Of a stretch of 64,000 nt of DNA, positions 6,962 to 63,222 are shown piece by piece. Location of the stretch: sequence record NZ_OX291475.1; one strand, written 5' to 3'. Both the position numbers and the translations under genes were made by a program. The notes beneath the pieces were generated by a model, which worked only from the letters and a program-made list of their open reading frames with translations, was not told where the DNA came from and searched no databases. The DNA is from a plasmid. Position 1 is the first letter of the stretch; each line of letters begins with the position of its first letter.

Positions 6962-6963
6962 CC

Positions 6964-36257: not shown

Positions 36258-36262
36258 AAACC

Positions 36263-36716: not shown

Positions 36717-36717
36717 C

Positions 36718-37488: not shown

Positions 37489-37499
37489 GGTGTGTCTCC

Positions 37500-37848: not shown

Positions 37849-37849
37849 T

Positions 37850-38494
37850 ATGATTATAACAGTAGGTAACACCAAGGGCGGGGTAGGCAAAACCACTTTG
37901 GCAGTAAACATCGCTGCAGCACGAGCACAACAGGGTCGAGATGTATTATTGATAGATGGGGATCGACAAGGCACGGCTCAAATCGCTGTTGGTATAAGGG
38001 CAAATGATGATTCTCTGCCAGGCATCGCCTGTGTGTCTTATCCCGAAGGACCGATCCTTCGTACTCAAGTGCTCCAGCAAAAGATGAAATATGATGACAT
38101 CATCATTGACGCAGGCGGCAGAGACTCCACAGCGTTACGTGCTGCTTTAGTGCTATCCGATGCACTGTTGGTTCCATACCGCCCTGGAAGCTTCGATGTT
38201 TGGGCTCTTGAAGACATATCTGCACTTATCAAGGAAGCGCGGAGTGTGAGAGATGGGTTGAACGTTTTCGCTATTATCAACGCTGCTGACTCCAATCCAC
38301 ACTCGATTGATAATCGAGAGGCTGCAGAAGTGATTGCAGACTTCCCAGAACTGACACTAATCCCCAAACATATTGTGGCGCGTAAAGCGTGGTCGAATGG
38401 GGCAGCATCAGGGAAATGTACGCTTGAAATGAAACCAAGAGATCCCAAAGCTGACGCTGATCTGGAAAGATTAATTTCAATCTTATTTTCATAG
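37850..38494 (+). CDS. parA: ParA/ParF-type partition ATPase (small type Ib)
   Basis: Deviant Walker A motif [11 protein letters not shown]. Length is 214 aa. Confidence 0.8.
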
Positions 38495-38552
38495 TCATTT
38501 AACACTATTTGAATATCAAAGTAATATTAATAAACGATTAAAGAGGTAATAA

Positions 38553-38825
38553 ATGGCTATTGTAAGACCCACGAAAAAACACACTACCCCTGCTGAAGAC
38601 AGCGCAGCAGAAGCCTTTATAAATTCGGCTCCAGATGGCGCGGCAACGCGAAGAAAGGGCGTAGTAAAGGGCAAACGCCAACAGATCACGTTAACGATAG
38701 ATCCTGAGATTTTGGACCGGCTCGATGTAAAAGCCGCTGAAGATGGCGTGTCTCGGGCTGCGCTCATCAACATCGCAATTCGCCAGCTATTGAACCGAGG
38801 AGCCACAGTTGGAGGCGGGAGTTAA
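38553..38825 (+). CDS. ParG-like RHH centromere-binding protein
   Basis: This 90-aa protein lies downstream of parA and has a C-terminal RHH-like segment (ITLTIDPEILDRLDVKAAEDGVSRAALINIAIRQLL). Confidence 0.55.
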   Translation: MAIVRPTKKHTTPAEDSAAEAFINSAPDGAATRRKGVVKGKRQQITLTIDPEILDRLDVKAAEDGVSRAALINIAIRQLLNRGATVGGGS

Positions 38826-38905
38826 TTAACTATCATTTTAATATTAAAACACTATGAAAACAGGGTTGTTTGAATTGCATTTTGGATGGTAATTGAGAGG
38901 AATAA
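38822..38905. repeat. Second array of the par-type repeats
   Basis: The motif atcattttaatattaaa lies between parG and the 142-aa gene. Confidence 0.4.
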
Positions 38906-38908
38906 CCA

Positions 38909-39337
38909 ATGATACAAGAAGTTATGGAAAAAATCATTGCCCTGGCCGATTACCAAAATATGATTAGCCCTGGGAGCCACCCAGCAAAGGGGCAATTCGT
39001 TGTCACCGGCACAACCCGCGGCGATAACGCAATACGTTTGGGTTATTGCATTCAGGTTCGAAAAGGCCGCGGTCAATTCGGCTCTGACATGGTTTTTCTG
39101 CGCCATCCGGACGGGACAATAAACACACATGAGAATCAGTTCTATCTCAGCATGACAGACGTACAAATTCAGCTTGCTCGTTCGGTCTTCAGCATCATGC
39201 CAGAAGACGAAGATGACTCACGGGGCTATTGCTGCTGCGGAAAAATCCGCGAATTCGGGTTCGTTGTCGAAAACTCAGGGACAGTTCCAACACCAGACCA
39301 CCCGTTTATGATAACGGTCTCTAGTGAAAAAGCTTAA
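38909..39337 (+). CDS. Hypothetical protein (142 aa) bracketed by par-type repeats
   Basis: RBS GAGAGG plus ATG. Confidence 0.45.
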   Translation: MIQEVMEKIIALADYQNMISPGSHPAKGQFVVTGTTRGDNAIRLGYCIQVRKGRGQFGSDMVFLRHPDGTINTHENQFYLSMTDVQIQLARSVFSIMPEDEDDSRGYCCCGKIREFGFVVENSGTVPTPDHPFMITVSSEKA

Positions 39338-39452
39338 CAGAATAGTTGAGCATATCAATACACTCATCGCCAATCAAAACAGGATTACTACAACATTAAT
39401 AAGATACATTTTTGATATCATTTTAATATTAAAGTGATATCAAAAACACAAT

Positions 39453-39701
39453 TCAGCTTTGAACGTGAAGCAATAAAACTTTCTCCGCAAATCCCTCGTC
39501 CAGTACATAGAAATAACATTCCGGCACGTTGAGTACACGTGCCAGCGCGCACATCGTCGTAAAGGAAGGGGTGTAGGTACCACTCTCGTACTGGGAGATC
39601 CGCGAACGGGCGGTGGCTTCATCAATACCCGCCAGGACACCCAGTTTTTCCTGCGTATAACCAGCCCGGAGGCGGGCGCTTTTCAGTCGTTGGGGAACCA
39701 T
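39453..39701 (-). CDS. XRE-family HTH regulator (82 aa)
   Basis: HTH segment YTQEKLGVLAGIDEATARSRISQYESG. Confidence 0.6.
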   Translation of the reverse strand: MVPQRLKSARLRAGYTQEKLGVLAGIDEATARSRISQYESGTYTPSFTTMCALARVLNVPECYFYVLDEGFAEKVLLLHVQS

Positions 39702-39879
39702 GGTCTGCCGTCATAGAAAGGATTGACGACATGTTTAGCATCACTTAACATCAGACTTGTTTAGAGTTACTAAACATCAGAGACACCAACCATGCAGTAC
39801 GCCAGGAAACACCAGGGAAACAAAAGGCCGGTCACTTGACCGGCCTGCCTTTTATTGGCATTCCACACACCAGTCATTC

Positions 39880-40065
39880 TCTGAGGATCTTTCAGTATCT
39901 CTACCGCGTCCACTCCAGGCATCGAGAACTGGTCGGGGATATAGTGGAGCAGGACGATCTCTTCCACGAACAGCAGTCCGGGTGACCCCATTTTCGAGTG
40001 CAATCCGGCGCAGCGCCAAGGCTACTGGGTAATCGATATTCACCAGAATCGACGACGGCGCGTTA
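39880..40065 (-). pseudogene. Internally deleted remnant of a tyrosine recombinase gene
   Basis: The DNA and translation match the first ~25 codons (IDYPVALALRRIAL) and the last ~25 codons (MPGVDAVEILK) of the intact recombinase at 42246..43022, joined without the catalytic core. Confidence 0.5.
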
Positions 40066-40450
40066 TAGTAGGCCACCGCATGCAGGAACTTGCCAGGAAT
40101 GATAGGAAAGATCACTGATGCTCCTTGAGAAGTACCACGCGAAACTGGTGCCGTAACGCCCCACGGTACGACACCAGTTTTACGCAGCACAAACTTTTAT
40201 GAATTGTACCAATCCCACAGGAAGATTGCCCCAACGGCCGCATACGTCAGCGCTAACCTCCGACGTGCATGGGTTTGGAAAAATCAGTCGGAAGTGAAAA
40301 GTGTCGTAAAAATGAATAAAAACCACTGTTCATGAACTAATTTTCATTTTCAAAATACCATTTTTTAACAACTCAATATATTGAATAATAATGATATTTT
40401 ATGTAAATTTTATCATTTATAAAGTCACCTGTATCTAGATAAGACGGTTT

Positions 40451-40633
40451 TTGCTAAGTACAATTCAAAAACGTTATCGAACAGGAGGATTTATGAACAC
40501 TCTCTACTTAGTAATTTATCTTTTCATCGAACTTTCAAAAGTTGCGGACAAGCTTATTCCTCTATTTACCAGCGCATCTTTGTTAGTTGCGTTAGTGACT
40601 GTGCTGACCCTTTTGTTCAAAGGAAAAGCGTAA
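40451..40633 (+). CDS. Small membrane peptide (60 aa)
   Basis: RBS AGGAGG plus ATG. Two hydrophobic helices. AT-rich. Confidence 0.3.
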   Translation: MLSTIQKRYRTGGFMNTLYLVIYLFIELSKVADKLIPLFTSASLLVALVTVLTLLFKGKA

Positions 40634-41334
40634 TGGCGAAAAAACTCTGGATAAAAATGCCCACAAACTGGATTCATAAGGATGGCTTGCGAGAATTTAG
40701 TTGGTCAGTCCGTTCTGTAAAAGTGAGCAATGCACATAAAATCGCGGCGCTGCAATTGTATGTAGCGATAGCTATGACATGTGAGGATATGGAGATAACT
40801 AACCAAGAGGGGACGTCGCTAACCTGTTTCGCGTCATCACTAACTTACAACAGGCTGCAAGTTATGACAGGACTGAGTAGAGCGTCAGTTGCTGGCGGTC
40901 TGTCACTTCTTGAAAACAACGAAATCATTAAGGTTTTCAGAGAGGGGAGGAAAAATTACTACAGCCCGGCTGACTATAACGGCGTCAGTGGGTGGTGTAA
41001 GGTTCCGTATCGCAGACTACTGAATGACCAGGGTAATGTGACAGCTTTTCACGCATTTAAGTTACGAAGGAAAGCCGAACTGCATGCCCTGAAACTGTAT
41101 CTGTACCTATGCTATGCACGTCCTAACACGTCTCACTTTACGATGGCCTCCTATGAAGCCATCAATAAGGCGACAGGTATTCCTGAAAAATGTATCCCAT
41201 CGGCATATACCGTTCTGGTTGGTACGGGACTACTTTCACACATAGATAAAAGTGCCGAGGAAGGTGCCACAAACAAAAGAATGGCAAACTCCTACTACAT
41301 TACCGGCTATAGGGATCTGCTCCAAAATTTTTAA
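40633..41334 (+). CDS. Hypothetical protein with two winged-HTH-like segments (233 aa)
   Basis: It lies in AT-rich DNA. The architecture resembles small iteron-type Rep initiators but this is unverified. Confidence 0.4.
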   Translation: MAKKLWIKMPTNWIHKDGLREFSWSVRSVKVSNAHKIAALQLYVAIAMTCEDMEITNQEGTSLTCFASSLTYNRLQVMTGLSRASVAGGLSLLENNEIIKVFREGRKNYYSPADYNGVSGWCKVPYRRLLNDQGNVTAFHAFKLRRKAELHALKLYLYLCYARPNTSHFTMASYEAINKATGIPEKCIPSAYTVLVGTGLLSHIDKSAEEGATNKRMANSYYITGYRDLLQNF

Positions 41335-41480
41335 CGTGTGCAATAGAAAGGCCCAGCGTAACTCACTAAGCATCATGATGAGATTACTGTCATGCCGAAT
41401 ACCGTTGGCTAACATCAAGTTTAAAAACCCAAAGTTAGGCACGGTTTTGACAGAAAAACACAGAGCAGATACATAGAGGA

Positions 41481-42206
41481 TCAGAGGCTGTCACGCCAGA
41501 AATCGGCGCTAAAATTATTCAGCCTACCTGTCGTTGTCTGATACGAGTCAGGGATCAATGCACCGTCTCTCCCTTCTCTAAAATATTGCTGCACTGATTG
41601 GAGCCCTAGCGATTTTAGATGCTCCCACTCATGAGATAACTCACTTTGCCTATTTTGCTCTTGTTTAGCCGCACTGAGTTTGCGGGCCGGATGTGGGGAT
41701 GAATAGTCCGGCCGCAAGTCAGCATTGTGTAGAAAAGTGATGCAGCTGTATGACCAGTCATCCTCTACAGACTGGCGCCAGTGGTAGCAAACCCTAACCG
41801 TCAAACGTTCACTAAAATGAAGTGGCCATAGAATTTGCTCGTCGATGCCAAAGAGCAGTGCGTCGACTTCTTCCACATCTACCCTCGATTTCATCTGACT
41901 TACTGCAAAGGATAAATTATCGCCAGCTTTACGGGCTGAGTACCCCGTTTCTTCGCGCTTTTTCGCGGATTTAGCCCTGCCATGTGCAGAGACAGCATTT
42001 TCAAAGTTTGATAATTCTCGGGCCACATACGAACCGCACCTGTAAAGCTGGAGGGTTTGAAGAGGGTAAGTCCTTTCCTCTCTCAGGCTTTGCCTTATTA
42101 GCTGATCCAGCAGTTCAATATCTATCGCTTTAAGGGCATTTTTCACGTCTCGTGGAGTATTTATCTCACTCATCAAATTAATTCCCTTCTTGCTAAGAAG
42201 AACCAT
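41481..42206 (-). CDS. Hypothetical protein (230-241 aa; start at 42206 or 42173)
   Basis: Coding-like with no recognisable motif. Confidence 0.4.
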   Translation of the reverse strand: MVLLSKKGINLMSEINTPRDVKNALKAIDIELLDQLIRQSLREERTYPLQTLQLYRCGSYVARELSNFENAVSAHGRAKSAKKREETGYSARKAGDNLSFAVSQMKSRVDVEEVDALLFGIDEQILWPLHFSERLTVRVCYHWRQSVEDDWSYSCITFLHNADLRPDYSSPHPARKLSAAKQEQNRQSELSHEWEHLKSLGLQSVQQYFREGRDGALIPDSYQTTTGRLNNFSADFWRDSL

Positions 42207-42245
42207 TGGAGAACCTACTCCGCTGGTTTTTAGTTAGTGATGCAA

Positions 42246-43022
42246 TCATGTTCCTTTCAGCATGGCAATGGCGTCAAGTTCCGGCATCGAGAACTGCACC
42301 CGATGCCGCGCCGCCACATCCAGCGCAAACACCTTCGTATAGACCTCCGTGGAGCTGATCGACTTGTGTCCCATCAGCGACTGCAGCACCTTGAGTGGAA
42401 TTCCGGCATACAGCATGTGCATCGCGTAGCTGTGGCGGAAGGTGTGCGGGGTGATAGGCACCGAGAACGTCACACCATCCTGCGCTGCCGCGTCCACGGC
42501 CTCGGCCAGCCAGCTGCGCACCGTTCTGTCAGTGATTGTCCACAGGCGTACTTTCTCCATGCGACCGGTTTTGGGGTCCCGGCGTTCCAGCGGAATTTTC
42601 AGCGTGGCCACCATGGTCTGCAGCTGTGCAACGTATAACGGATCAGACAGCGGCACCAGGCGGTGTGCCGAGCTGCCGGCCGGGAGCCGGCCTGCGGTTC
42701 GCGCGGTTTTCTCTGCCCGCTGCTTGAGCGTGGCCAACTGCGCGAACGGGTAGGGCGATGCCAGCGAAAAATCCCCCCTTGTCAGCGCCAGCGCTTCGTT
42801 AATCCGGGCGCCGGTATTCCATAGCGTAGCCAGCAACATCTTGCGGTGCAGATCCGGCACATAGTGGAACAGGGCGCTCACCTCCGGAGCCAGCAGGTAT
42901 TTCGGCAGTTCGTCCTGTACCAGTGCCATCTGGCGCAGCGCCAGCGCAGCCGGGTAGTCGATGGACACCGGCAGCTGAGCTGCAGTTCCTGGCTGCTGCC
43001 CCAGGGTAACGAGCCCAGCCAT
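42246..43022 (-). CDS. Tyrosine site-specific recombinase (phage-integrase family, 258 aa)
   Basis: The C-terminal catalytic region HTFRHSYAMHML...LMGHKSISSTEVYTKV carries R, H-x-x-R and Y. The start overlaps the upstream gene stop (TGATG). Confidence 0.8.
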   Translation of the reverse strand: MAGLVTLGQQPGTAAQLPVSIDYPAALALRQMALVQDELPKYLLAPEVSALFHYVPDLHRKMLLATLWNTGARINEALALTRGDFSLASPYPFAQLATLKQRAEKTARTAGRLPAGSSAHRLVPLSDPLYVAQLQTMVATLKIPLERRDPKTGRMEKVRLWTITDRTVRSWLAEAVDAAAQDGVTFSVPITPHTFRHSYAMHMLYAGIPLKVLQSLMGHKSISSTEVYTKVFALDVAARHRVQFSMPELDAIAMLKGT

Positions 43023-43840
43023 CAGGATGCCTCTCCGGCTGGAGGTATGTTCAGTGCTGACGCTATAATTTCCCGGTTTTCCTCATTACGCAAGTTACCG
43101 AAATAGCCCACTTCCAGGCGCAGGGACTGGTGTGCCGCCTCTATAAGGTCAGAGACGCTCTGCAGGGCATTCTGTAGCTGCTGCGCGGATATCGCTCTTG
43201 GCACATCATGTTCATCCACGCCGTTACGGTGTACCAGGTCGTTTCGCCAGTCTGCGATCATGCTCAGCGGCTCAACCGGCCAGATGGGGGGGATGTGCAG
43301 CACGGCGCCGAAATAGCGCTCAATGGTTTCAACGTTATGAAACGTCATTCGGGAAACAAAATTCTGCGCCGCAGGCCGGAACAGGGACAGATCCATGTCA
43401 CGGGCAGCATGTTTTTCCGGATTTTTGATTCGTTTGGACTTCATGTAATACGCATCCCTGAAGCGTTTAAGGGGCCAGTCATGTTCTAGCAGGGCCCTGG
43501 CGCAGTACATCAGGTACGCCTCCATGACAGTCACGGCATGGACGAAAGACATCCTGTACACCAGTTCAGGCTGCTCTTTATCGAGCAGGGCATATAACTT
43601 CTTCAGCTCCTGATTTGCGTGCAGGTAACGCTGATGAACATTGTTCAGGGAAGCCACAAACAGCCCGTGTTCATGATCCCACTGAGCCTGATCGGCAAGC
43701 GCCTCCTGCTCCCAGTAGTACAAGTTCGCGGCATGCTCCCATTCTTCAGAGTCGGGGACAACATCCGGGTAATTTTCCGCAAGCCATTCATCAAATCGTT
43801 CAGCTTCAATATCCAACATCAGGTCTTTCATGCTTCCCAT
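43022..43840 (-). CDS. Hypothetical protein (272 aa) translationally coupled to the recombinase; possible HEPN-like protein
   Basis: RN-x3-H motif WRNDLVHRNG near the C-terminus. ATG at 43840 with RBS GAGAGG. Confidence 0.45.
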   Translation of the reverse strand: MGSMKDLMLDIEAERFDEWLAENYPDVVPDSEEWEHAANLYYWEQEALADQAQWDHEHGLFVASLNNVHQRYLHANQELKKLYALLDKEQPELVYRMSFVHAVTVMEAYLMYCARALLEHDWPLKRFRDAYYMKSKRIKNPEKHAARDMDLSLFRPAAQNFVSRMTFHNVETIERYFGAVLHIPPIWPVEPLSMIADWRNDLVHRNGVDEHDVPRAISAQQLQNALQSVSDLIEAAHQSLRLEVGYFGNLRNEENREIIASALNIPPAGEAS

Positions 43841-43937
43841 AACACCTGTACCTCTCTGTGTGGTTTTATAAATGAGAAATCCCGACGCTGGCGACGGCGC
43901 AGGCATCTCGGGGTGAACGCCGGCACCACTAAACCGC

Positions 43938-44135
43938 TCATGCGTTATTCCTCTCGGCCAGTCGTTGCTCGTTCCGCGACTTTCGCTCTTTGCGCCAGCA
44001 TTGCCACAGCGTTTTCTGCGGAGACCAGCGGTATTTGTCGAGGCGGGAAGAGGGTATGCCGGTGATCTGCGGCCACAGGCCGGCGCTGTCTTTGACGATC
44101 TTCACGCCCTCAGTGGCAATAAACCAGTCACCCAT
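43938..44135 (-). CDS. Small hypothetical protein (65 aa)
   Basis: ORF-track frame only; weak support. Confidence 0.25.
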   Translation of the reverse strand: MGDWFIATEGVKIVKDSAGLWPQITGIPSSRLDKYRWSPQKTLWQCWRKERKSRNEQRLAERNNA

Positions 44136-44174
44136 GTGTGTTCCTTATTATTAAGTGCAAAATCACGCCCACCG

Positions 44175-44534
44175 TCAGGGTTGTTCAGCCGCAGCGCTGG
44201 CGATCGCATCCACTGCTTGTTTAACCGAAAAGGACAATCCATCCTTATCTTTCGGTGAAAAATGTACCCAGTAGCACAGATACGTACCGTAGTTCTGGTC
44301 GGTATGACGAGTTTCATAATTTACGCTGAATGCGTAAACCCCCCGGTTGCCCAGGCGATGGTCTGTGATTTCGCAGTAACGCAGATAAAGGTCGCGCAAT
44401 TCATCAAACAACCCTCCCTCTTTCAGCGGACCCACTGCTTTGACTGCTTCACGCTGATCCATGAAATAGTCCACGGCGGCTTTTTTGGATTTAAATTCCT
44501 TCTGCCCAATCTTCACAGGTTTTGAACGTCCCAT
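44175..44534 (-). CDS. Hypothetical protein (119 aa)
   Basis: Coding-like, basic N-terminus. Confidence 0.4.
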   Translation of the reverse strand: MGRSKPVKIGQKEFKSKKAAVDYFMDQREAVKAVGPLKEGGLFDELRDLYLRYCEITDHRLGNRGVYAFSVNYETRHTDQNYGTYLCYWVHFSPKDKDGLSFSVKQAVDAIASAAAEQP

Positions 44535-45216
44535 CCTGAACCCCTTTTGTTAACAGTGAAATAATCACACCCCGTAATCACCCCATCATCACGCCAGTGA
44601 TGATGATCGCCCTCGCAGTTACCCGCCAAAAACATAACCAATATGATAATAAGCAGGAATATAATCACTCAAGTAAATTACAGGATACCCGTCCCGGCAT
44701 GATCCGATTTTTCTTCATATAACAACTTTCCGGAAGTCTACCACGCACAGGAAATAAGCAAAGCGGCGTTTTTCGGTGCCGCGCACCGGGTCACAGGGCA
44801 GGGCGACAACACAACATATAGATGAAAAAGCAGCTGACGATGTGGCACATATTGTGTTTTTCTGCCACTACACGCCGGGCCGGGTGAAGAAGATCCGGGA
44901 CCACCAGAAATCGGATCTGCGTATGAAGAGAATGGAACTACTGCCTCTATGGCAATAAACAACATTTATTATTGCCTTAGTAGCACTGTTGTCATAAATG
45001 CAATAATTGAAATAATCTATTGCATCATGAGTAACTTCTGAAGCTGTTTGCCGCTCGCTCTCATCCTTAACCTGATTAATGCCGGTCGGGTTCAGATCAA
45101 ATATTTATTAACCGGTGATGGAAATAAAATGAAGCCGGAACGGGATCGCCCTACTATGAATAAAATTATACGGCGCCTCCGGGCATTCATCAGCGACTGA
45201 ATAAAGGTATCAAGGA

Positions 45217-47838
45217 ATGTATCCCGTATTTGAGAATGGATCCTGCTGGGTCAAGGTGGATTTTCATCTTCATACCCGTGCAGATAAAGAATTTCGCTAT
45301 GTCGGGGAACCCGACAGCTATATTCGTGACTACGTCAGTGCCCTGAAAGCGGCTGATGTGGGAGTAGGCGTGATCACCAATCATAATAAATTCGATCCCG
45401 GAGAGTTTAAGGCATTACGCAAAGCCGCGCGCCGTGAAGGCACTGAGCTGCTTCCCGGCGTGGAACTCTCTGTCAATGATGGTCAGGCCGGCGTGCACAC
45501 GCTTGTGGTGTTTGCCGATGACTGGTTCATCAACCCGCAGCAGACGAATCATATTGAAAGTTTCCTGACGGCCACGTTTGCGGGCGTTGATAATTTTGAG
45601 AACGAAAATGCCCGTTCAATAGAAAATATCACTCAGACCATCCAGCGCCTTGACCGGTATGAACGGGATTACTTCATTGTGTTTGCCCACGTTGAAGCCC
45701 CTAACGGGTTATGGCGCGGGTTCAGCCCTGGCCGGATCGGGGAGCTTTTTGATAATGAGCTTGTCCGCCGGCGCGTGATGGGGTTTCAGAAGGTGATGAC
45801 CCACGACCTGCGGGTTAAAATTCACGGCGTTCTTGGTAGGCGCTATCCTGCAGAAGTCCAGGGATGCGATGCCAAAACGCTGGATGACATCGGTGCCAGA
45901 AAAGTCGCCAGCTATCTGAAGCTGGGTGATTACAGTTTTGACGCTGTCCGATTTGCGCTGCAGGATTTCCCGCACCGCGTCAGCGGGGAAAAACCGGCCC
46001 TTATCCACAGCCATATCCGTCAGATAGCATTCGAGGGAGCCGGTTCGCTCGGCGGAACCGTGGTGAAATTATCTCCGGAGCTGAACACCCTGATTGGGAT
46101 CCGCGGCAGCGGAAAATCCTCCATACTTGAAGGGATCCGCTATGCCCTGGACATTCCGTTTGGCGAGAAGGCATCTGACCGCGACTACAAAGAAAATCTG
46201 ATCAGTAATTTACTCAAAAGCGGGGGGAAAATTACCGTCGACGCCGTGTGCCGTCTCGGGCGGGCATATCAGATAACCCGAATTTTCGGCCAGGAACCGC
46301 AGGTCATTTTTGACGGCCAGGCCAGGCACGGGGTCGCGCTCCGGGAAACGGTTCTGCACAAGCCAGTGTATTTTGGCCAGAAAGATCTGTCCAATACCGG
46401 CGCAGGGTTTGAACACGATCTGATTGAAAAGCTGGTCGGTGAGCGACTGGTTCCCGTGCGAGAAAAAATCCGGCAGCAGAATACAGTCGTGCTCGACAGG
46501 TTACGCCTGCTTCGTCGCCTGAAAAAATCGGGAGAAGCACTCTCAGAATGGCAGGCAAAAAAGGCGGATGCGCAGTTCCGCCTGCGCTTTTATGCCCAGC
46601 ATGGCATGGAAGAAAAACTGGAGCGGCAGACCACCTTCGGACGGGACGAGCGCTATCTCAGCAATACCTCTGCCCAGGCAACCCAAGCGCTGGACAGTCT
46701 GCAGGACGGTATCAGGGAGACACTCGACGAGTTGAAGCAGGAGCAGAAACATGAATCAGCGCATAACCAGGCCGAGATCGATGACTATTGTGAGGGATAT
46801 GATCGCTTCACGACCCATCTCAACTCCCTGAACACCATCGTCGACGGCGCCCGCCAGCTCCTCACAGAACTCGATACTAAGCAGCAGGCCTTCCAGCAGA
46901 AAAAGCAGGCGCTGACGGAGGAATTTGCCGAAATAGAGCGAGGCCTTGCAGAAGAGTTGCGGCGGGCCGGGGTGGAAAAAGCCGATCCGGCCGACTTTCT
47001 GAAACTAAAGGCTGGGCTGGAAACTGCGGAAGAGAAAATAGATGAGTTAACCCGGGCTGAAACCAGTCAAGCGTTACAGGAGAAGAGCCTCACAGAAGCG
47101 CTGAGCCGGTTGGCTGAACTCTGGGGGGAAGAGTATCACGAAATTGAAGCCGTGCTGGCCACCATCAACCAGGCAGATTCGCCCTTGAAGATCGTGCCGG
47201 CCTTTGCAAGCGACAAAAAAGCCATGCAATCTTTTCTGAAAGAAACGTTTATTGGCAGCCGGTTGCGGGAAAGTACCTACCAGACCGTAGCTGACGGCTT
47301 CAGCGATTTTGGCGAACTCTGGCTGAACAGGGATAAACTCCAGGGGATTATCAACGGCTCTGCTGAGACGTTCGGTGTGTATCTGGAACAGCAGATAGAA
47401 TCGCTAATCGTCTGGCAGATCCCGAATACCTACACCATTGAATTCCGCGGAAAACCACTGGAACAACACTCGCTGGGTCAGCGCGCCTCCGCATTAATGC
47501 TGTTTGTCCTGAATCAGCAGGATAATGATGTGGTGATCATCGATCAGCCCGAAGACGACCTGGACAATCAGACGATTTATGACGACGTGATTAAAATCAT
47601 CAGGACGATGAAACCCCGCACCCAATTTATCTTTGCCACTCACAATGCCAACATTCCGGTTCTGGGTGACGCAGAGAATGTCTGTGCCTGTGAATATTCA
47701 GACGGAAAGATCCAGGCTGCCGGTGGAGGCGTGGATGCACCTCATGTACAACAGCACATTATTTCGGTGATGGAGGGCGGGCGAGAAGCCTTTGAGCGGC
47801 GCAGGGAAGTTTACGGCTCATGGCTCAGTAAAACCTGA
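45217..47838 (+). CDS. Ppl-like single-protein defence candidate: N-terminal PHP phosphoesterase domain fused to an OLD/ABC-type ATPase (873 aa)
   Basis: PHP His motif DFHLHT plus further His/Asp residues at the N-terminus. Walker A LIGIRGSGKSS. Walker B/D-loop IIDQPEDDLD and H-loop FATHN at the C-terminus. Confidence 0.65.
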   Translation: MYPVFENGSCWVKVDFHLHTRADKEFRYVGEPDSYIRDYVSALKAADVGVGVITNHNKFDPGEFKALRKAARREGTELLPGVELSVNDGQAGVHTLVVFADDWFINPQQTNHIESFLTATFAGVDNFENENARSIENITQTIQRLDRYERDYFIVFAHVEAPNGLWRGFSPGRIGELFDNELVRRRVMGFQKVMTHDLRVKIHGVLGRRYPAEVQGCDAKTLDDIGARKVASYLKLGDYSFDAVRFALQDFPHRVSGEKPALIHSHIRQIAFEGAGSLGGTVVKLSPELNTLIGIRGSGKSSILEGIRYALDIPFGEKASDRDYKENLISNLLKSGGKITVDAVCRLGRAYQITRIFGQEPQVIFDGQARHGVALRETVLHKPVYFGQKDLSNTGAGFEHDLIEKLVGERLVPVREKIRQQNTVVLDRLRLLRRLKKSGEALSEWQAKKADAQFRLRFYAQHGMEEKLERQTTFGRDERYLSNTSAQATQALDSLQDGIRETLDELKQEQKHESAHNQAEIDDYCEGYDRFTTHLNSLNTIVDGARQLLTELDTKQQAFQQKKQALTEEFAEIERGLAEELRRAGVEKADPADFLKLKAGLETAEEKIDELTRAETSQALQEKSLTEALSRLAELWGEEYHEIEAVLATINQADSPLKIVPAFASDKKAMQSFLKETFIGSRLRESTYQTVADGFSDFGELWLNRDKLQGIINGSAETFGVYLEQQIESLIVWQIPNTYTIEFRGKPLEQHSLGQRASALMLFVLNQQDNDVVIIDQPEDDLDNQTIYDDVIKIIRTMKPRTQFIFATHNANIPVLGDAENVCACEYSDGKIQAAGGGVDAPHVQQHIISVMEGGREAFERRREVYGSWLSKT

Positions 47839-48013
47839 TGCCATCAGGTTCACTGAGCATCCAGAAAAAGCCGCAAATGCGGCTTTTTCTGTTTCCGATT
47901 ATTGGGGTTTTACCGAATCTCATGGTGGTATGTGTGATCCACCGTGGACGCACTCTACAGATATCATTATATTAGTCAGTAAAAATAGACAAACCGCAAG
48001 GGATGGGATTTAC

Positions 48014-48328
48014 ATGACACAGCTTGAATATAATGAGTTACTCGCCTTATACCGCGCCCGTCTGGATATTGCCTCACAAAGAGGTACCTACGCCTCGATG
48101 CTGCAAAGTATCCTTCGAGACATCAGTAATAAGGTCAAACGTGGCGAACTGACAAAAGAGCAAGGTCTCTCGCTGGCGAAAATACTGTTCAATATTTCCG
48201 TAGAACAGTACCACATTGATGGTGTTGAGTCTCTCAATGAGGAAATCAGAAAGGGGTCTCTTGATATTTCTTACGATGCCGCTGACGCTATGGCTGAAAA
48301 AATAGCCGCCATGAAGGCAAATAGATAA
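48014..48328 (+). CDS. Hypothetical small protein (104 aa) downstream of the ppl-like gene
   Basis: RBS AAGGGA plus ATG. AT-rich. Confidence 0.4.
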   Translation: MTQLEYNELLALYRARLDIASQRGTYASMLQSILRDISNKVKRGELTKEQGLSLAKILFNISVEQYHIDGVESLNEEIRKGSLDISYDAADAMAEKIAAMKANR

Positions 48329-48855
48329 TGGCCGATCTCACAACTATCGAATCAGCAGCATCCGCAGTCTGGTCAACACGTGATTATCTTTATACTGCAG
48401 GCGTTTTTGTGGCCGTCATTTCAGCGTGGATTGCAGGTTATAGCGCATATAAAACTGGGAGGCGTGACCTGAATTCATTAGGGGATTCGGAAATCAAGAC
48501 GTTTGAAATGATTGCAAAAGCTGAAAAGGATTTTGCTGAGTTCAATGCACGTCTTACAGATAAAATTGATTTATTTGATGCTGATCCTGCGAACAAAGGT
48601 AAAGAGTATCCCCTCACTGGTGCGGAAACAGGACTGAGTGATTTCTACACACAAAGCGTGTTGAATGCCTATGAAATTGCCTGCCAACGTTACTTGGACA
48701 AAAAACTCGATGGCGAGAGATTTAAAAAAACATATCGAACGAGGCTTAATAAGATTTGTTCCTCACGAGCATATAACCCCATAATTGATGATGGGAGCCA
48801 TAACTACGCAGCATTGAAAAAAGTAAACGACATCTTTAACAATCCTGAAAAGTAA
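48328..48855 (+). CDS. N-terminally membrane-anchored hypothetical protein (175 aa)
   Basis: TAATG overlap with the preceding gene. TM helix LYTAGVFVAVISAWIAGYSAY. Confidence 0.45.
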   Translation: MADLTTIESAASAVWSTRDYLYTAGVFVAVISAWIAGYSAYKTGRRDLNSLGDSEIKTFEMIAKAEKDFAEFNARLTDKIDLFDADPANKGKEYPLTGAETGLSDFYTQSVLNAYEIACQRYLDKKLDGERFKKTYRTRLNKICSSRAYNPIIDDGSHNYAALKKVNDIFNNPEK

Positions 48856-49156
48856 ATTTAAAGAGCCTGCCAAACACGCAGGCTCTTTAAAAAAAGACAT
48901 CAATACTTTTTTGCCACATTCCGTAAGGAGTGACAACGTCGTTAAATAGCCTTTCATGAATAAAATCGGTGATAAGTAAGAGAATATCGGACAGAACGCT
49001 AAAGAATCAACAGGAAAGGGAAAGTGTAAGGCGGTCAGTAACGCCCATTTACAGCTGTTAGCCCCATATACAGGCGTGGACGGTTGATAACCAAGAGATA
49101 AAATCGGTACAAAGTGGTCTACATGGAGTAAACCACTTCAAGAGGGGTTCCTAAGG

Positions 49157-49831
49157 CTAAAGAAAGATAAATCCCTTCGTAGTAAGCAATGGCCGGGTTC
49201 CTAAAGGTACCGTGAGGTTATATTTTCCAATATTATTTTCCTCATCGTAAGTATCGCCTAATCCTAAAATAACTTCCCTGTTACATAACTCAGGAATATC
49301 ACGACAAAGACTGGCGATAATATTGGTTAAATTATAAATAGATGTATATAAATCAAATCCTCCTGAATATAATTCACCCTTATGCAGGATTTGAGGATCA
49401 TTCGCGAACCCGTCTAAATTATCAAAAACAAAACTCAAGTCTTGGCAATATGTAATCAGTGAATTTTTTTCTTCTAACTTCCAGGGTTGTGATTTTCCAG
49501 ACATAAAAGCACGCAAAGCCTTCGCAACTATATGGATAGGGATAATTATCATTTCATTATGACTAAGTAACATATTTTCATGATTAAAGACAACACGGAT
49601 CTCATCAATATCACCTTGGTGATGATAATAGTTTCTTAAATGCTTGAGGATTTTGAACTCAGGATAACTCATTAAGTCAGTATCAAAATCTTGCTTCAAC
49701 CTGTCATTTAAAGAATGCAAACTATTTAAAAACGTATAAAGTGTTCTACCATTTCTTTTATGGGCACAAGTCACATCCATTAGCTCGAAGCTGCTTTCAA
49801 AAAATCTGTCAATGTACTTTAAATTATCCAT
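49157..49831 (-). CDS. Putative HEPN-domain protein (224 aa)
   Basis: Motif LRNYYHH (RN-x3-H). RBS GAGAG. Very AT-rich. Confidence 0.45.
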   Translation of the reverse strand: MDNLKYIDRFFESSFELMDVTCAHKRNGRTLYTFLNSLHSLNDRLKQDFDTDLMSYPEFKILKHLRNYYHHQGDIDEIRVVFNHENMLLSHNEMIIIPIHIVAKALRAFMSGKSQPWKLEEKNSLITYCQDLSFVFDNLDGFANDPQILHKGELYSGGFDLYTSIYNLTNIIASLCRDIPELCNREVILGLGDTYDEENNIGKYNLTVPLGTRPLLTTKGFIFL

Positions 49832-50178
49832 CTTCTCTCTCTGCTCTGGTTCGGACAGTTAACCGTCTACGTATCGCTTTCAGGCCATTGATGTTGCATC
49901 GGGTCACCTCACATTATCAGGGGCTGATAATATCTACTTATTGATATTTTGCAGCCATAGCAAGAGGATTACCAGGCTAATCGGTAAAAGAGGTGATTAC
50001 CTAATCAAGATACGAAACTTCTAACAAAATTCACAGAACCGCTCGGCGAGGTATGGAACACGCCGGGCGTCCAGGTTCATACGCGATTCGAAACATGCGC
50101 TGTGAAGGGAAACTGGCCGCTCCCCGAGAGGGATATAGCTGACCGATGCTTCCGATGAAAAGGTAGGTCACCGAGGGT

Positions 50179-50916
50179 TCATTGTAAGGGGCGGTGTTTA
50201 TTCTTATGATATTCCTGCACGGTGGAATTTATCGCTTCCACATATCGCGAGATTTCATCCACAGCGAAATTCAGGAAATTATTCTTGAGCAGGACTGTAT
50301 TGAAGCAAGTGACCGAAATTGCCTCGCTTGCCTTGCTAATAGCGCGCAACTGTCTTTTCTCGCTGTCTTTTTTTGCACGTGTCATTTTCAGCAGCTGATG
50401 ATACTCGTGAGCAACACCGTCGGCATGTGCCATTATATTCCTGATGATAGTCAGGTGATCAACATCGGCAATATCCTTCTTTCCGTAGATGGTGGTCAGC
50501 ATGTCGTGGGTTTTTTCAATCATTCCCCCCTTGAGTATTTCCGTATGCCCAGAAAGGCGAATCATCAATTCCAGGCAATTACTCATACGTTGCTCGAACA
50601 GGCCAAATATTGTCAAAAATGCAGAGCGCCGTGTCAGTTGGGTAATTAAATTAACGTACTGTAATTTGACTTCCTCGACATCGTTACCTACACACGACCC
50701 GCAGGAGTAATAGGTATACCATACCTGTCTGTAAGATCCATCCTCATTCTCCAGGTAGTCCTCAATTATATCTTCCGTGATAAAATCAGGCTCATCCACT
50801 GCTTTAACTTCGCGAATGATATTAGCTTCAGCCTGTTGAGCAAGCATCTTCATGACAGAAATTGACGAAGACGCTTCCCATAAAGGAACACTAAACAGAC
50901 ACTCTAGTTTTGCCAC
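50179..50916 (-). CDS. Putative HEPN-domain protein (245 aa)
   Basis: Motif IIRNIMAHADG (RN-x3-H). GTG start with RBS AGGAT. AT-rich. Confidence 0.45.
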   Translation of the reverse strand: MAKLECLFSVPLWEASSSISVMKMLAQQAEANIIREVKAVDEPDFITEDIIEDYLENEDGSYRQVWYTYYSCGSCVGNDVEEVKLQYVNLITQLTRRSAFLTIFGLFEQRMSNCLELMIRLSGHTEILKGGMIEKTHDMLTTIYGKKDIADVDHLTIIRNIMAHADGVAHEYHQLLKMTRAKKDSEKRQLRAISKASEAISVTCFNTVLLKNNFLNFAVDEISRYVEAINSTVQEYHKNKHRPLQ

Positions 50917-51039
50917 GACATCATCCTAATTTTCAAAAATTAAACTGCTCAACAGTATGACGGCTTGTGCTTGTTTCATCCTGCTCTGGATGGGCGTCTT
51001 TACCCTCACTGCCCATTCAGAGCAAAAGCTGATTTACTA

Positions 51040-52110
51040 TCAGGCCTTTTTAACAGCAGTGGCTATTGGCTGACCACCTTGTTGCGTACTCTGCTCCGGC
51101 TCAAATGTAACCCTGTCATGCACCGCATAAGCGTTCATGCCCCCCACAAAGGCACCGGCAAAGGCAGTAAAGGTCTTTTTGTCCTTTTCGCTTTGAATCA
51201 TCACTATCTGGCTTGCCACGTTAATATTAACAACAACGCCAGTATGACGGGTTTCCAGCAGTGTATTTCCCAGCCACTGTTCACCACTAATAATGTCAAG
51301 TTCGGAAAGGCCGGCTGGCAGTCTCTTGTTTTTCCACAACGAGTGCGGACTGCATAGCTCGTTTACATTTTGGGTGTTTTCAATAATGCTCAACAATTTT
51401 AGATTAGACGGGTTGATCCATCGAATCACCTCGATACAGCGATGATATTCACGGGCAACTTTATTAATGGCCTGTTCGACAGAGTAGGTTTTATCAGAAC
51501 GCCATAATGGCTCGTGATGGGATATTCTGTTACGTAACGTATTTATATCCCGGAGATCTGCACCAATTCTGTTTATTGATAATGCTTTGCCATTTTTATT
51601 GGCATGGGGAAAAACGCGTGAAGTCAAGTCCGGCCATAAAGAAAGATAGTTGCAATAATTGGCATGAGTACGATCATATTTCTTGTCGACCAATGACACC
51701 CAAAATCCGAGTGTTAACTTTGAGATGAGATTTTCTGTTGTGTGCGGCTTTCCATCTTTATTAAGTTGACCTTTTGCCGCCGCGATAGCTTTAAACGATG
51801 TATTGTTGTTTGCCTGCGTCATTACAGTTACAAACCACTTATCATCGATATTCCCTTTCTTCTGCGCCCAGGTTGGTTGAGGATGGAGCCGTTTTATTTC
51901 ATCTTCTTCGAAAGCCTGTTTGGCCCCGCAAATGGCATTCCTTAATGAGACCTCGATCACCTGCAGTGCGGGAAGGAATGCGCCGGCGAGCTGTTTATTC
52001 CATAGATAAATGCCCAGGCACTCTTCTGGTGTGGCGCCGTTGAAAACGGAAGATTGGTAGGTTGCAAATCGGTGCTGTGATATAGAGCTTAAAATAGCCG
52101 CAATCGTCAT
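51040..52110 (-). CDS. Abi_2-family (AbiD/AbiF-like) abortive-infection protein with a C-terminal extension
   Basis: Conserved blocks LTLGFWVSL and LRNRISHHEPLW. Length 356 aa. RBS AAGGAG. Confidence 0.65.
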   Translation of the reverse strand: MTIAAILSSISQHRFATYQSSVFNGATPEECLGIYLWNKQLAGAFLPALQVIEVSLRNAICGAKQAFEEDEIKRLHPQPTWAQKKGNIDDKWFVTVMTQANNNTSFKAIAAAKGQLNKDGKPHTTENLISKLTLGFWVSLVDKKYDRTHANYCNYLSLWPDLTSRVFPHANKNGKALSINRIGADLRDINTLRNRISHHEPLWRSDKTYSVEQAINKVAREYHRCIEVIRWINPSNLKLLSIIENTQNVNELCSPHSLWKNKRLPAGLSELDIISGEQWLGNTLLETRHTGVVVNINVASQIVMIQSEKDKKTFTAFAGAFVGGMNAYAVHDRVTFEPEQSTQQGGQPIATAVKKA

Positions 52111-52493
52111 AATATCTCCTTGATGTCCGATGAGTATATCAAAGCGCTTGACGTGAGCAAAAATTTGAAGGATGATGTGCCCCAGAGACAGGATCTCTAA
52201 CTGTGTGAGCGACTATGCCGGTGATAAATCACCCGCTAGGTTGCGAAATTTTCAAAGAAGGCTTCCTCCGGGGAGCCTTTTTTGATTGTGTCGATCAATG
52301 CACTAGCCAGCATTCTCCACTCACCTTCACCATATTCATCCGTATTTCAATCAAGCCCGTCACTCAGCCTACAAGTTCCGAAGAATTAGTTTGCCTAGAC
52401 ACGCCTGTGAATAACGCTTTGTTCGAAATCCCGCACCACCACTGAAGCTATAGCTATACTTTGGCCATGTCGACACAAAAGGATCACCTGCCT

Positions 52494-53180
52494 ATGTGTG
52501 GCCGTTTTGCCCAGTTCCATAGCCGAGAGGAATTTATCACCGCCCTGCGATCCGAAACGCCAATGATCACCACCGGTGACTGGCATGCACGGTATAACGT
52601 TGCCCCTGGCACGCCGGTACCGCTGTTCCATCATCATGATGATCAGCTGCAGCTAACACCGGTTGACTGGGGCTATGCGCCGATATGGTGGCGAGAGCAG
52701 GGAAAACCGCCACTCATCAACGCCCGCGTCGAAACCGCCGCAAGCAGCCGGATGTTCACGCCGCTCTGGAAACATGGCCGTGCGTTGGTACCGGCATCAG
52801 GTTGGTACGAATGGAAAAAGTCCCCGGACAATCCGAAACTGAAGCAACCGTATTTCATCTATCCCGCCGATCGCAGCCCGCTGTTCTTCGCCGCGTTGTG
52901 CTCCACTGATCCGGAAGAAGCTGGCAGCTTCGTCATCATCACGGCCGCCAGTCATGACGGTCTGGCGGATATTCATGATCGGCGCCCACTGGCGCTGCCG
53001 GCAGCCGCCGCACGCGACTGGCTCGATAGCCGGTTGACCCCGCCGCCAGGCGACATGTTGGCCGACGTTTATAGCCTGCAGGCGGATGATTTCAACTGGC
53101 AACCGGTCTCGCCGGCGGTAGGTGCCGTTCGCAATGACAATCCCTCACTCATCCTTGCCATCGATACACCAACGGTCTGA
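52494..53180 (+). CDS. yedK: SOS-response-associated peptidase (SRAP/YedK family, abasic-site processing)
   Basis: The N-terminal MCGRFAQ catalytic Cys2 motif and the WYEW motif are present. Confidence 0.75.
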   Translation: MCGRFAQFHSREEFITALRSETPMITTGDWHARYNVAPGTPVPLFHHHDDQLQLTPVDWGYAPIWWREQGKPPLINARVETAASSRMFTPLWKHGRALVPASGWYEWKKSPDNPKLKQPYFIYPADRSPLFFAALCSTDPEEAGSFVIITAASHDGLADIHDRRPLALPAAAARDWLDSRLTPPPGDMLADVYSLQADDFNWQPVSPAVGAVRNDNPSLILAIDTPTV

Positions 53181-53344
53181 GCAGCGCGTTATCCACAGTT
53201 TTGGTGGATATCATGTGTGCAAACACACATGAAAGACGCCAAAAGCTGCAGAGAAAATCACTCGGAAAATTATTATATTACGTCGGATCGCGCTACGCGA
53301 CCCGGTTTCAGGCTTGCGTGTATGCACGTTTCGTTTATGATTTA

Positions 53345-53360
53345 CTGTATATATATACAG
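53345..53360. promoter_or_regulatory. LexA box (SOS operator) of umuDC
   Basis: CTGTATATATATACAG matches CTGT-N8-ACAG exactly and lies 17 nt upstream of the umuD start. Confidence 0.8.
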
Positions 53361-53376
53361 ATAAATTATACTTATT

Positions 53377-53793
53377 ATGAACACTAGAGAATTGTACTTT
53401 TTTTCACCAGGTCAGCCGGTAAAACTCCCACTCTACGGGACACCATGTCCGGCAGGCTTCCCCAGCCCTGCCGACGATTACATTGAACAATCCATTGATT
53501 TAAATGATTTTATCCGACATCCGGCCGCCACGTATTTTATCCGCGCATCGGGAGAGTCAATGAGTGAGGGCGGCATACTGTCAGGAGATTTGCTGATTGT
53601 CGATCGGGCTGAAAAACCCGTGCATGGTAGCATCGTGATCGCCGCGGTCGACGGCGAGTTTACTGTCAAGCGGCTGCTGCTGACACCCAGGGTTTGTCTG
53701 GCGCCGATGAATCCTGCCTACAGTCCTATTTATCCCGAAACGCTGGAAATTTTCGGGGTGGTGATCCACGCCCTGCACTCATTTGGAAGGTGA
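53377..53793 (+). CDS. umuD: UmuD, error-prone polymerase V subunit (LexA-like S24 peptidase)
   Basis: The protein has the catalytic Ser ([11 protein letters not shown]24 signature GxSM) and Lys (VKRL). Confidence 0.85.
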
Positions 53794-53795
53794 TC

Positions 53796-54767
53796 ATGTT
53801 TATGCTGGCTGACGTCAATTCGATGTACTGTGCCTGCGAACAGGTCTTCCGGCCGGATCTGAAAGGCCGTCCGGTGGCCGTGCTTTCGAATAACGACGGT
53901 GCCCTGGTGGCGATCAACCGGGAGGGAAAACAACTCGGTCTTAAACGCGGCATGCCATTTTTTCAGGCCAAAGAAATCATTAAAAATCAAAATGTCACTG
54001 TTTTCTCTAGCAATTATTCTTTGTACGGCGACATGTCGGCGCGCTGCATGACGATTTTAGAATCTCTCGCGCCGGCGATTACGATCTACAGCATCGACGA
54101 GGCATTCCTTCACGTTGCCGGCATCGATGCCACAGAGTCATTCGAAGACTATGGCCGGCGCGTTCGCGATACCGTTTTACAGCAGACGGGACTCACCTGC
54201 GGGATCGGTGTCGCCCAGACGATGACGCTTGCCAAACTCGCGAATCACGCTGCGAAAACCTGGCCGGCCACCGGTGGGGTTGTCGATCTGACGAACCGCG
54301 ATCGACAACGCAAATTGATGGGGCTGCTGCCAGTCAACGAAGTTTGGGGATGTGGGCGCCAGTTGACTAAAAAGCTGGCTGCGATGGGGATCACCACAGC
54401 ACTGCAGCTGGCCGACAGCAACCAGGCGTTGATCCGCAGGACGTTCGGGGTTGTGCTCGAGCGCACCGTGCGTGAACTGAACGGTGTGCCATGTATCTCA
54501 ATCGATGCGCTGCCGGCAAAGCAGCAGATCATCGTCAGCCGGTCATTTGGCCAGCGCGTTACGCAGCTGCAGGACATGCGCCAGGCGGTGTGCCAGTACG
54601 CCGAGCGGGCCGCCGAAAAACTTCGCCGAGAGAAGCAATATTGCCGGCACATTTCGGTGTTCGCGCGAACCAGCCCATTTTCGCCTCATGATCCCTATTA
54701 CGCGAACAGCAACAGCGTGCGGCTCATGCTGGGGTCAGTTTGGATATCGAAAATTATTGTACTATAA
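53796..54767 (+). pseudogene. umuC: umuC truncated after about codon 314 by a transposon insertion
   Basis: It is collinear with E. coli UmuC (MFxLxDVN, SIDEAF, LAKLANHAAK) up to ...PYYANSNSVRL. It then reads into the Tn3-family IR ggggtcag and stops. About 100 codons are missing. Confidence 0.8.
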
Positions 54768-62029: not shown

Positions 62030-62386
62030 CTATCGCTCAGCCAATACGAAACCGGCATTGGCTGATGCCACAACCGAGACTAACACAAATGGCTCGGTAC
62101 CTGTATTTCGCGCCCCGTGCACTTGGCCCGGTCTTGCCACGGCTATCTCACCTTCCCTGAGGGCACGAACAATCCCATTGCCCTGAAAGTAATCAGCCAT
62201 TCCCGACAAAACAGTCCACGTGTCTTGGCCGTGAGGATGAATGTGAGCCGCAATTTCCTGCCCGGGATGGACATGCCAAACCACGATAATTGAGTCTCGG
62301 GTTTCAAGCACAACGGAACGAATAGGCTCGCCTTCGGACGGCTGAACATACTCGGCTACAGAAAATATTCTCGATTCAACAGTCAT
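62030..62386 (-). CDS. Cupin-domain protein (~118 aa)
   Basis: The two cupin motifs are H-x-H...E and G...H (HVHPGQEIAAHIHPHGQDTW, GQVHGARN). The preferred start has RBS GAGGGA. Confidence 0.5.
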   Translation of the reverse strand: MTVESRIFSVAEYVQPSEGEPIRSVVLETRDSIIVVWHVHPGQEIAAHIHPHGQDTWTVLSGMADYFQGNGIVRALREGEIAVARPGQVHGARNTGTEPFVLVSVVASANAGFVLAER

Positions 62387-62777
62387 CGGAGATCCCTCTT
62401 TCACAGTTGTCGTTACGGTCTTCATCGTCGGCATCCTGACGCACGGCGGGCAATTGCTGGAGCAACGCCGGCAGCCATTCCTGTACCGTCTCCCACACCA
62501 CATCGAGGTTGATGTCGAAATAGCCGTGAGCCATGCGATTACGCATATTGCGCATGCTGCGCCACGGCACGTCGGCATGCGCCTGGGTGAACTCGACGTA
62601 GCCATCCATCACCTTTGTGGCCGCCTCGCCGATGACGATCAGGCTCATGATGACGGCCTGCTGGGTGCGCTTGTCGGCCAAGAAGTCGTCCTTGGCCATC
62701 CCTTCCACGAAGCTGCGCGCATCGGTTGCGGCCTGCTGAATGTGGTCGAGGTAATCGGGCAGGCGGTTCTCGCTCAT
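62376..62777 (-). CDS. hepT: HepT-like HEPN toxin (DUF86)
   Basis: R-x4-H-x-Y motif MRNRMAHGYF. 133 aa. ATGA overlap with mntA. Confidence 0.75.
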   Translation of the reverse strand: MSENRLPDYLDHIQQAATDARSFVEGMAKDDFLADKRTQQAVIMSLIVIGEAATKVMDGYVEFTQAHADVPWRSMRNMRNRMAHGYFDINLDVVWETVQEWLPALLQQLPAVRQDADDEDRNDNCERGISDDC

Positions 62778-63064: not shown

Positions 63065-63222
63065 GCGCATCCTTTCTTATCGAAACTCGTTGAGATGATA
63101 TGCAATCAAGAATAGAATTTCAAGAACTATTTTCGAGAATCGCAATGCCTTGATTCCCGTGCCGCGCCGGTTGCCTTGGCGGGCTTGTCACAAACCTACG
63201 TTTTCAAGAAGAAGGAAACCGC
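63065..63222. promoter_or_regulatory. Divergent promoter region (possible res site) between mntA-hepT and tnpA
   Basis: A 158-bp intergenic stretch separates divergent genes. In Tn3-family transposons TA modules sit next to res. Confidence 0.3.

Follow-up and report, generated by a model that had tools for sequence, protein, structure and literature searches.

Three consecutive plasmid genes for mutually unrelated RN-x3-H proteins as likely stand-alone HEPN-type abortive-infection modules

In HEPN proteins, which are four-helix up-down bundles, the Rx4-6H motif closes helix 3 or opens the loop to helix 4, the arginine is followed by a polar residue (N, D or H), and helix 2 carries a conserved acidic residue; Abi2/AbiF/AbiD is a recognised HEPN clade (PMC3710099). 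PD-T4-5, a distant relative of AbiF/D that emerged from a functional selection, is a plasmid-borne single gene acting by abortive infection, and its founding member, from an E. coli plasmid, protects against T4 (PMC9519451). HepS, the 'HEPN Solo' protein of Gifsy-1 (PDB 9oik), is a partnerless protein of approximately 220 amino acids (aa) that both senses and kills; its resting form is an inactive tetramer, which the phage tail-tip protein J activates, and it cuts tRNA anticodon loops (PMC13043305). The subject of the present work is a group of three consecutive minus-strand genes at positions 49157-52110 of a 64,000-nucleotide (nt) stretch, here referred to as the window, of the plasmid sequence record NZ_OX291475.1. 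They encode proteins of 224, 245 and 356 aa, each carrying an RN-x3-H motif. It is considered likely that the three are independent single-gene abortive-infection modules, each a stand-alone HEPN-type RNase, that were acquired separately in a cargo region extending from a resD-like recombinase gene to a SRAP-umuDC cluster.

The original prediction, namely three adjacent minus-strand open reading frames (ORFs) with RN-x3-H peptides, was found to be exact in its coordinates and in the peptides quoted. The gene at 49157-49831 encodes the 224-aa protein, a member of an unnamed family with the peptide LRNYYHH (R66..H71, nt 49619-49636), a probable HEPN core spanning approximately residues 5-128 and a C-terminal alpha/beta region. 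The gene at 50179-50916, which has a GTG start with AGGA upstream, encodes the 245-aa protein, also of an unnamed family; its N-terminal part consists of a helix and a beta-hairpin with a conserved CGSC, it has a HEPN-like helical core, and the motif peptide is IIRNIMAHADG (R159..H164, nt 50425-50442). The 356-aa protein (51040-52110), with the peptide LRNRISHHEPLW (R193..H198, nt 51517-51534), was assigned with Pfam and PADLOC to the Abi_2 (AbiD/F-like) proteins of PD-T4-5 type.

This last assignment places the 356-aa protein in a known and tested kind, as it matches Pfam Abi_2 (40.4 bits, gathering cut-off 25.6) and, through residues 4-257, positions 8-259 of the 309 in the PADLOC PD-T4-5 model (PDLC04038, 9.9e-32), in line with its earlier description as Abi_2-like. 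Its match to the PADLOC AbiD model is weak (6.5e-6). It shares with PD-T4-5 and AbiD/AbiF the Abi_2 domain, an LRNRxxHHE motif, of which RNRISH falls inside the Abi_2 match, and the organisation as a single plasmid-borne gene, but differs from PD-T4-5 in having about 100 further C-terminal residues past the matched part of the model. This extension (residues 255-356, 51040-51345) has no match to a Pfam family; inspected by eye, it may be a small beta-rich, possibly OB-like domain. In contrast to the 356-aa protein, the 224- and 245-aa proteins have no sequence relationship to Abi_2. Neither matched a family of Pfam, including the named HEPN families of the Pfam clan, of NCBIfam or of PADLOC at threshold; the 224-aa protein also had no match in PHROGs, where the 245-aa protein corresponds to phrog_21382, an entry without a function. 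The earlier statement that no family could be named for these two was thus borne out, and the profile search proposed as a check gave Abi_2 and PD-T4-5 for the 356-aa protein and no threshold HEPN match for the other two.

Clustering of HEPN-type genes beyond chance is supported by the frequency of the motif. The window has 115 ORFs of 100 aa or more, and RN...H is present in just five of them: the three genes under study, a 272-aa protein encoded at 43022-43840 and HepT. Given the local amino-acid composition, the motif is expected by chance with a probability of 0.016-0.026 per protein, close to the 1 in 50 first estimated, so that three neighbours in a row would arise by chance with a probability of approximately 7e-6. 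For four motif proteins within approximately 9 kb, against about 0.2 expected, the corresponding value is approximately 1e-4. The strongest argument against chance motifs is provided by their conservation in aligned homologues. In the 224 family the only invariant columns among 46 relatives, down to approximately 20% identity, are R66, N67, H71 and H39; R159, N160 and H164 are invariant among 36 relatives of the 245-aa protein; and the 272-aa family has an invariant H204 and keeps R199 in at least 90% of its sequences. An acidic residue upstream of the motif is conserved as well (D43 in the 224 family, E108 in the 245 family). The proteins had been called mutually unrelated, and this was confirmed at the sequence level, since hhalign returned a probability below 1% for each pair of the 224, 245 and 272 families, with any alignment comprising the motif alone. 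A hidden common ancestry of the families was dropped on the same grounds.

The 245-aa protein is, very probably, a HEPN member. Its AlphaFold model (predicted local distance difference test score, pLDDT, 93.7) is mostly helical, and according to DSSP its helix 153-164 ends with the motif. Weak, sub-threshold Pfam matches occur within the family, HEPN_RiboL-PSP (PF18735) being the commonest (4/36, best 6.7e-4), followed by HEPN_Swt1 (2/36). The family has further conserved positions: both cysteines of the CGSC sequence at the end of the beta-hairpin (C72 and C75) are nearly invariant and G73 between them is strictly so, while C114 is invariant and H154 nearly invariant. Judged from the alignment, C72, C75, C114 and H154 form a possible candidate metal site near the HEPN core.

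HEPN_RiboL-PSP is also the family approached by the 272-aa protein, which spans the full model (positions 2-189 of 191) but stays under the gathering score (21.7 bits, cut-off 28.4). The model is matched by 15 of 24 homologues of this protein, and some of them bear the UniRef name RiboL-PSP-HEPN. Two of the motif proteins, the Abi_2 and the RiboL-PSP one, are of known kinds. Although the 245 family has weak matches to the same model, it aligned with the 272 family by hhalign through the motif only. The 272-aa gene, located on the minus strand and with the peptide WRNDLVHRNG (R199..H204, nt 43229-43246), is translationally coupled to the downstream recombinase gene, the start of which shares one base with it, in agreement with the coupling originally proposed.

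For the 224-aa protein, membership of the HEPN proteins is assigned with good confidence, if less than for the 245-aa protein. In its model (pLDDT 88) helices 5-25, 28-49 and 57-72 are followed by a beta insert, further helices and the alpha/beta C-terminal part. According to DSSP the motif ends the third helix, and D43 sits in the second, an arrangement consistent with the published HEPN pattern. The alternative is that the protein is not a HEPN RNase but another helical protein, in which the set H39/R66/N67/H70/H71 serves a different chemistry or binding; just two of the three neighbours would then be HEPN proteins, and both statements are regarded as unlikely. They draw on a Foldseek search of the model against the PDB, which gave nothing significant, on the lack of a profile link between this family and any HEPN family, and on the invariant H39 and the HH doublet, which are outside the canonical motif. 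Set against them are the canonical R-polar-x3-H sequence that closes the third helix, together with the conserved acidic D43 of the second, the occurrence of an alternative upstream histidine in AbiV and AF0298-type HEPN proteins (PMC3710099), and the weak Pfam matches of the family, among which Ribonuc_2-5A, a KEN-type HEPN, is the commonest (5/46) and HEPN_Cthe2314 occurs once (1/46), all sub-threshold. The 224-family contexts, which are defence and toxin islands, likewise speak for the HEPN assignment. A profile search of 1.84 billion representatives extended the family to a superfamily of 81 clusters at 50% identity, including relatives of approximately 200 aa with about 20% identity, across which the extended H...RNxxHH set is maintained; no Pfam domain was present in any of the ten relatives scanned.

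Comparison of structures suggests a resemblance of both unnamed families to HepT. The structures closest to the 224- and 245-aa models were of the HepT-MNT type (5yep, 7ae2, 8xdj and 1ylm), those of the 224-aa model in the PDB not being significant, and the RNxxxH motif is common to both sides. A bona fide HepT-MNT pair, carried by a transposon, is present in the same window, confirming the hepT reported earlier: hepT itself (62376-62777, minus strand; Pfam HepT-like, 9e-27) and the antitoxin gene MNT (62774-63070, minus strand; Pfam NTP_transf_2, 4e-9). Unlike HepT, the three proteins have neither an MNT neighbour nor a HepT-like Pfam match, and they are 90-220 residues longer, with extra regions. 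As for HepS, the 224 and 245 families resemble it in being encoded by a single gene of mobile elements with no conserved partner or inhibitor. The motif position differs (R66 and R159 versus R100 in HepS), as do the accessory regions. Profile searches of PDB sequences with alignments A1, A2 and A3 gave no meaningful match, and HepS (9oik) was not matched by them at E values up to 10.

The distribution of homologues bears on whether the three genes act together. Homologues of the trio were not found together at any of the loci compared (21 with a 245-family gene and 8 with a 224-family gene), nor among the matches listed from two tblastn searches of 72,556 plasmids; among these 29 loci the 224 and 245 families, and Abi_2, are side by side in the window only. 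With megablast the trio was recovered from AP028558.1 alone, one further record carrying just the 224 gene, and no nucleotide match was obtained in complete E. coli genomes. A tblastn search of 50,697 phage records with the 224- and 245-aa proteins was also negative. Clustering of the neighbours at the 29 loci revealed no shared partner gene beyond closely related loci, and no NTP_transf_2 (MNT) gene adjoins the three genes or the homologues examined. Instead, homologues of each gene are found apart from those of the other two, in most cases as lone genes of prophages, phage-plasmids, plasmids and defence or toxin islands.

Within the 224 family, the closest plasmid relative (82-84% identity) is from Enterobacteriaceae bacterium Kacie_13, where only the gene and approximately 35 bp on each side are common with the window and the gene lies between a trypsin-like peptidase gene and one for a 484-aa unknown protein. 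In Morganella, 224-family genes are located at a prophage end, directly after the tail-fibre genes, with varying cargo beside them (Gabija-like OLD/UvrD, or GmrSD with HEPN). Further settings of the family are an island that also contains SymE, RES, CbtA/CbeA and a Lit-type peptidase, a small plasmid with SIR2 and DUF87 genes in the vicinity, and Klebsiella IncHI1B plasmids, on which type I restriction genes lie next to the 224-family gene. By tblastn, 248 PLSDB plasmids were found to carry a member of the 245 family, pHCM2 of S. Typhi CT18 among them, and the family also occurs in the chromosomes of Pseudomonas, Pectobacterium and Pantoea; in one context it adjoins genes for a reverse transcriptase and a Tn3-family transposase. 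Most of its chromosomal loci have opposite-strand ORFs on at least one side, and the gene thus appears to be a single-gene unit. In Pseudomonas chromosomes (loci L018-L020, L024 and L026, at approximately 6900-7270) a conserved ORF of 122 aa lies directly downstream of the 245-family gene in convergent orientation; it may mark an integration hotspot rather than being a partner.

Since the homologues are distributed separately and have no partner in common, the multi-component reading of the locus is unsupported. According to that reading, the trio, perhaps with the TrlF-family ATPase encoded nearby or the 272-aa protein, would form one HEPN system needing all its parts, and it is held to be highly improbable. 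It takes its appeal from the tandem arrangement of the genes on one strand within 3 kb, from the position of the sole clear terminator-like hairpin (48857-48891, a 14-bp perfect stem followed by a T run) after the last gene of the trio, and from some Serratia plasmids in which a 245-family gene, a DUF4145 HEPN gene and an Abi_2 gene lie within about 6 kb. Yet in the IncFII Serratia plasmids (L009-L012) the umuDC-SRAP genes separate the Abi_2 and 245-family genes and the order differs, megablast recovered the trio from the present plasmid lineage only, related Serratia plasmids have other defence genes in the same slot, and the nearest homologues (84%, and 82-84% identity) are in unrelated contexts without the other two genes. 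Furthermore, no neighbour is common across the 29 loci, the 245 family being usually flanked by opposite-strand genes, and within the trio the GC content differs (0.37 versus 0.45) and the intergenic gaps measure 347 and 123 bp. A scan for promoters and terminators gave counts equal to those expected from shuffled sequence and is therefore uninformative on operon structure, the hairpin excepted. Thus, what remains of the HEPN abortive-infection cluster originally proposed is its HEPN-type character and its clustering beyond chance, but not a dedicated multi-component system.

In two lineages a protease gene accompanies one of the families. At locus L002 a trypsin-like peptidase gene (8796-9560) is directly upstream of the 224-family gene (8034-8708) on the same strand, with a gap of 87 bp; in Serratia IncFII plasmids (L009-L012) another one (4510-5940) is directly upstream of the 245-family gene (6001-6729), again on the same strand and with a gap of 60 bp. 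Neither protease is a close relative of the other, and both match generic defence-protease effector models only. As a conserved partner the protease was discarded, being found in only two lineages and absent from the window. The pairs may be an undescribed two-gene variant, protease plus HEPN, of which there are hints in these genomes, or a coincidence.

The setting of the three genes is that of plasmid cargo. Positions 36000-54763 of the window are 99.6% identical to pQC08_2 of Serratia marcescens QC08 (AP028558.1), a 93.9-kb conjugative MOBP/MPF_I plasmid in which the genes of the locus are annotated as hypothetical. On the left, the cargo is bounded by the gene of a ResD-like tyrosine recombinase (42246-43022, minus strand; Pfam Phage_integrase, resD in the annotation of AP028558.1) and on the right by SRAP-umuD-umuC (52461-54767, plus strand; Pfam SRAP, Peptidase_S24, IMS and partial IMS_C) with a truncated umuC. 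Related Serratia plasmids have resD and SRAP-umuD-umuC in common, the latter being found also in L009-L012 and L032, and differ in the content between and around them. In the window the slot is occupied by a DUF3223/HamC-like gene, a gene for a TrlF-family PHP-ATPase, two small genes and the three HEPN-type genes. In IncFII Serratia plasmids, umuDC is flanked on one side by a trypsin-like peptidase gene, a 245-family gene and a DUF4145 gene, and on the other by genes for an Abi_2 and a TIR protein. The cargo of EBP3064_p1 of S. proteamaculans comprises a colicin module and two other motif proteins, namely a different Abi-family protein (RNRLSH) and one of 287 aa with RNKIQH and a Cys-rich tail. 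In an S. entomophila plasmid, the sequence common with the window ends just past the TrlF gene. Such variable content between conserved edges points to a plasmid cargo hotspot accumulating defence genes, and HEPN proteins are a frequent component of this cargo. At locus L032, from an S. proteamaculans plasmid, the 287-aa RNKIQH protein (16625-17488) has a zinc-ribbon-like Cys-rich C-terminus and is accompanied by the RNRLSH Abi protein (10589-11638) and a colicin/immunity module.

The three genes differ in composition from their surroundings, with a GC content of 0.37-0.45 versus approximately 0.50-0.55 in the flanks, so the region was rightly described as AT-rich; within the trio it is not uniform. 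They had also been placed next to a ppl-like gene. A gene of this sort does lie nearby (45217-47838, plus strand), in the same cargo region, and is a separate defence-type gene, but its product is better named a TrlF-family PHP-ATPase: it matches NCBIfam TrlF_fam_ATP with 539 bits (cut-off 350) and the PADLOC Ppl model with 1e-37, while the cut-off of the Ppl equivalog model is not reached. Nor is it the immediate neighbour, since it is convergent with the trio and is followed on its 3' side by two small genes (approximately 104-178 aa, and 175 aa) up to 48855 and by the terminator-like hairpin, which is located between these convergent plus-strand genes and the 224-aa gene. The two small genes are outside the stretch common with the trlF-bearing S. 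entomophila plasmid, and the second has a weak, sub-threshold match to DUF4760. A 119-aa DUF3223 protein (44175-44534), encoded alone between the 272-aa HEPN gene and trlF, has a weak match (E approximately 1e-5) to the Hachiman-associated HamC models of PADLOC. At the right edge, umuC (53694-54767) encodes 357 aa, with IMS_C aligned only to position 56 of 109. The truncation coincides with the endpoint of identity to AP028558.1 and is followed by an IS110-family ORF and Tn3-family transposase sequence, which indicates that the window derives from a pQC08_2 variant carrying another insertion.

A plasmid location beside maintenance genes also invites the view that the three proteins are addiction toxins, or toxins of toxin-antitoxin (TA) systems with an unrecognised small-protein or RNA antitoxin, and that their role is in plasmid maintenance rather than phage defence. 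The best point for this view, which is nonetheless deemed improbable, is that ResD-like recombinases adjoin members of three RNx3H families: the 272 family (window, 42246-43840), the 224 family (L007, 6001-8829) and the 245 family (L013, 2-1345). In addition, HepT-type HEPN toxins are classical TA toxins, with one such pair in the window, and PD-T4-5 was placed by its authors among TA-like systems (PMC9519451). On the other hand, no MNT or other conserved small ORF adjoins the trio or its homologues, neither ToxI-like repeats nor an above-threshold Rfam antitoxin were found in the window, and for the many homologues located in chromosomes or prophages an addiction role is less plausible. The sole antitoxin-family match in Rfam was OrzO-P (29.9 bits, gathering score 60), on the terminator hairpin. 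An RNA antitoxin or ToxI-like repeats were dropped as candidates, as Rfam, Tandem Repeats Finder and a repeat finder gave this sub-threshold match and short repeats at chance level.

Under the favoured reading of three independent stand-alone modules, and by analogy with PD-T4-5/AbiD-F and HepS, each protein would be produced constitutively and kept in an inactive oligomeric state. The part outside the HEPN core would sense either a phage product or a change induced by infection, and this would cause a rearrangement. Candidates for the sensor are, in the 245-aa protein, the N-terminal helix and CGSC hairpin, in the 224-aa protein, the C-terminal alpha/beta region, and in the Abi_2 protein, its C-terminal extension; searched against Pfam, the accessory regions of all three proteins matched no family. 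Two Rx4H motifs would then come together in a composite active site with metal-independent RNase activity, and cleavage of tRNA, rRNA or mRNA would stop translation, so that the cell would die or arrest before phage release. Several points count against this scheme. The function of the 224- and 245-aa families is putative, and profile and HMM searches linked neither of them to a named HEPN family at threshold. An exposed motif histidine and a suitable geometry of the dimeric site are assumed, the models being of monomers, and so are constitutive expression and non-toxicity.

All available evidence places the 224 and 245 families in the large, fast-evolving HEPN superfamily, as additional clades that serve in the familiar way as solo abortive-infection proteins. 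A more specific proposal, that the 224 superfamily and the 245 family are two unrecognised solo HEPN abortive-infection clades with built-in sensors, stacked here to widen the range of phages, is tentative, its prospects being put at slightly below even.

Both families are absent from Pfam, NCBIfam and PADLOC and are therefore missed by current defence-annotation pipelines, and one of them is common on clinically relevant plasmids of Klebsiella, Salmonella and Citrobacter, including pHCM2. The genes are short and single, which makes them easy to clone and to challenge with phages, and the interval from resD to SRAP-umuDC in the Serratia backbone is a practical place to seek more defence genes. 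Solo HEPN proteins that sense and kill have been worked out only recently, with HepS in 2026, and each new solo HEPN clade would add a further trigger-sensor pair, perhaps with an RNA target of its own.

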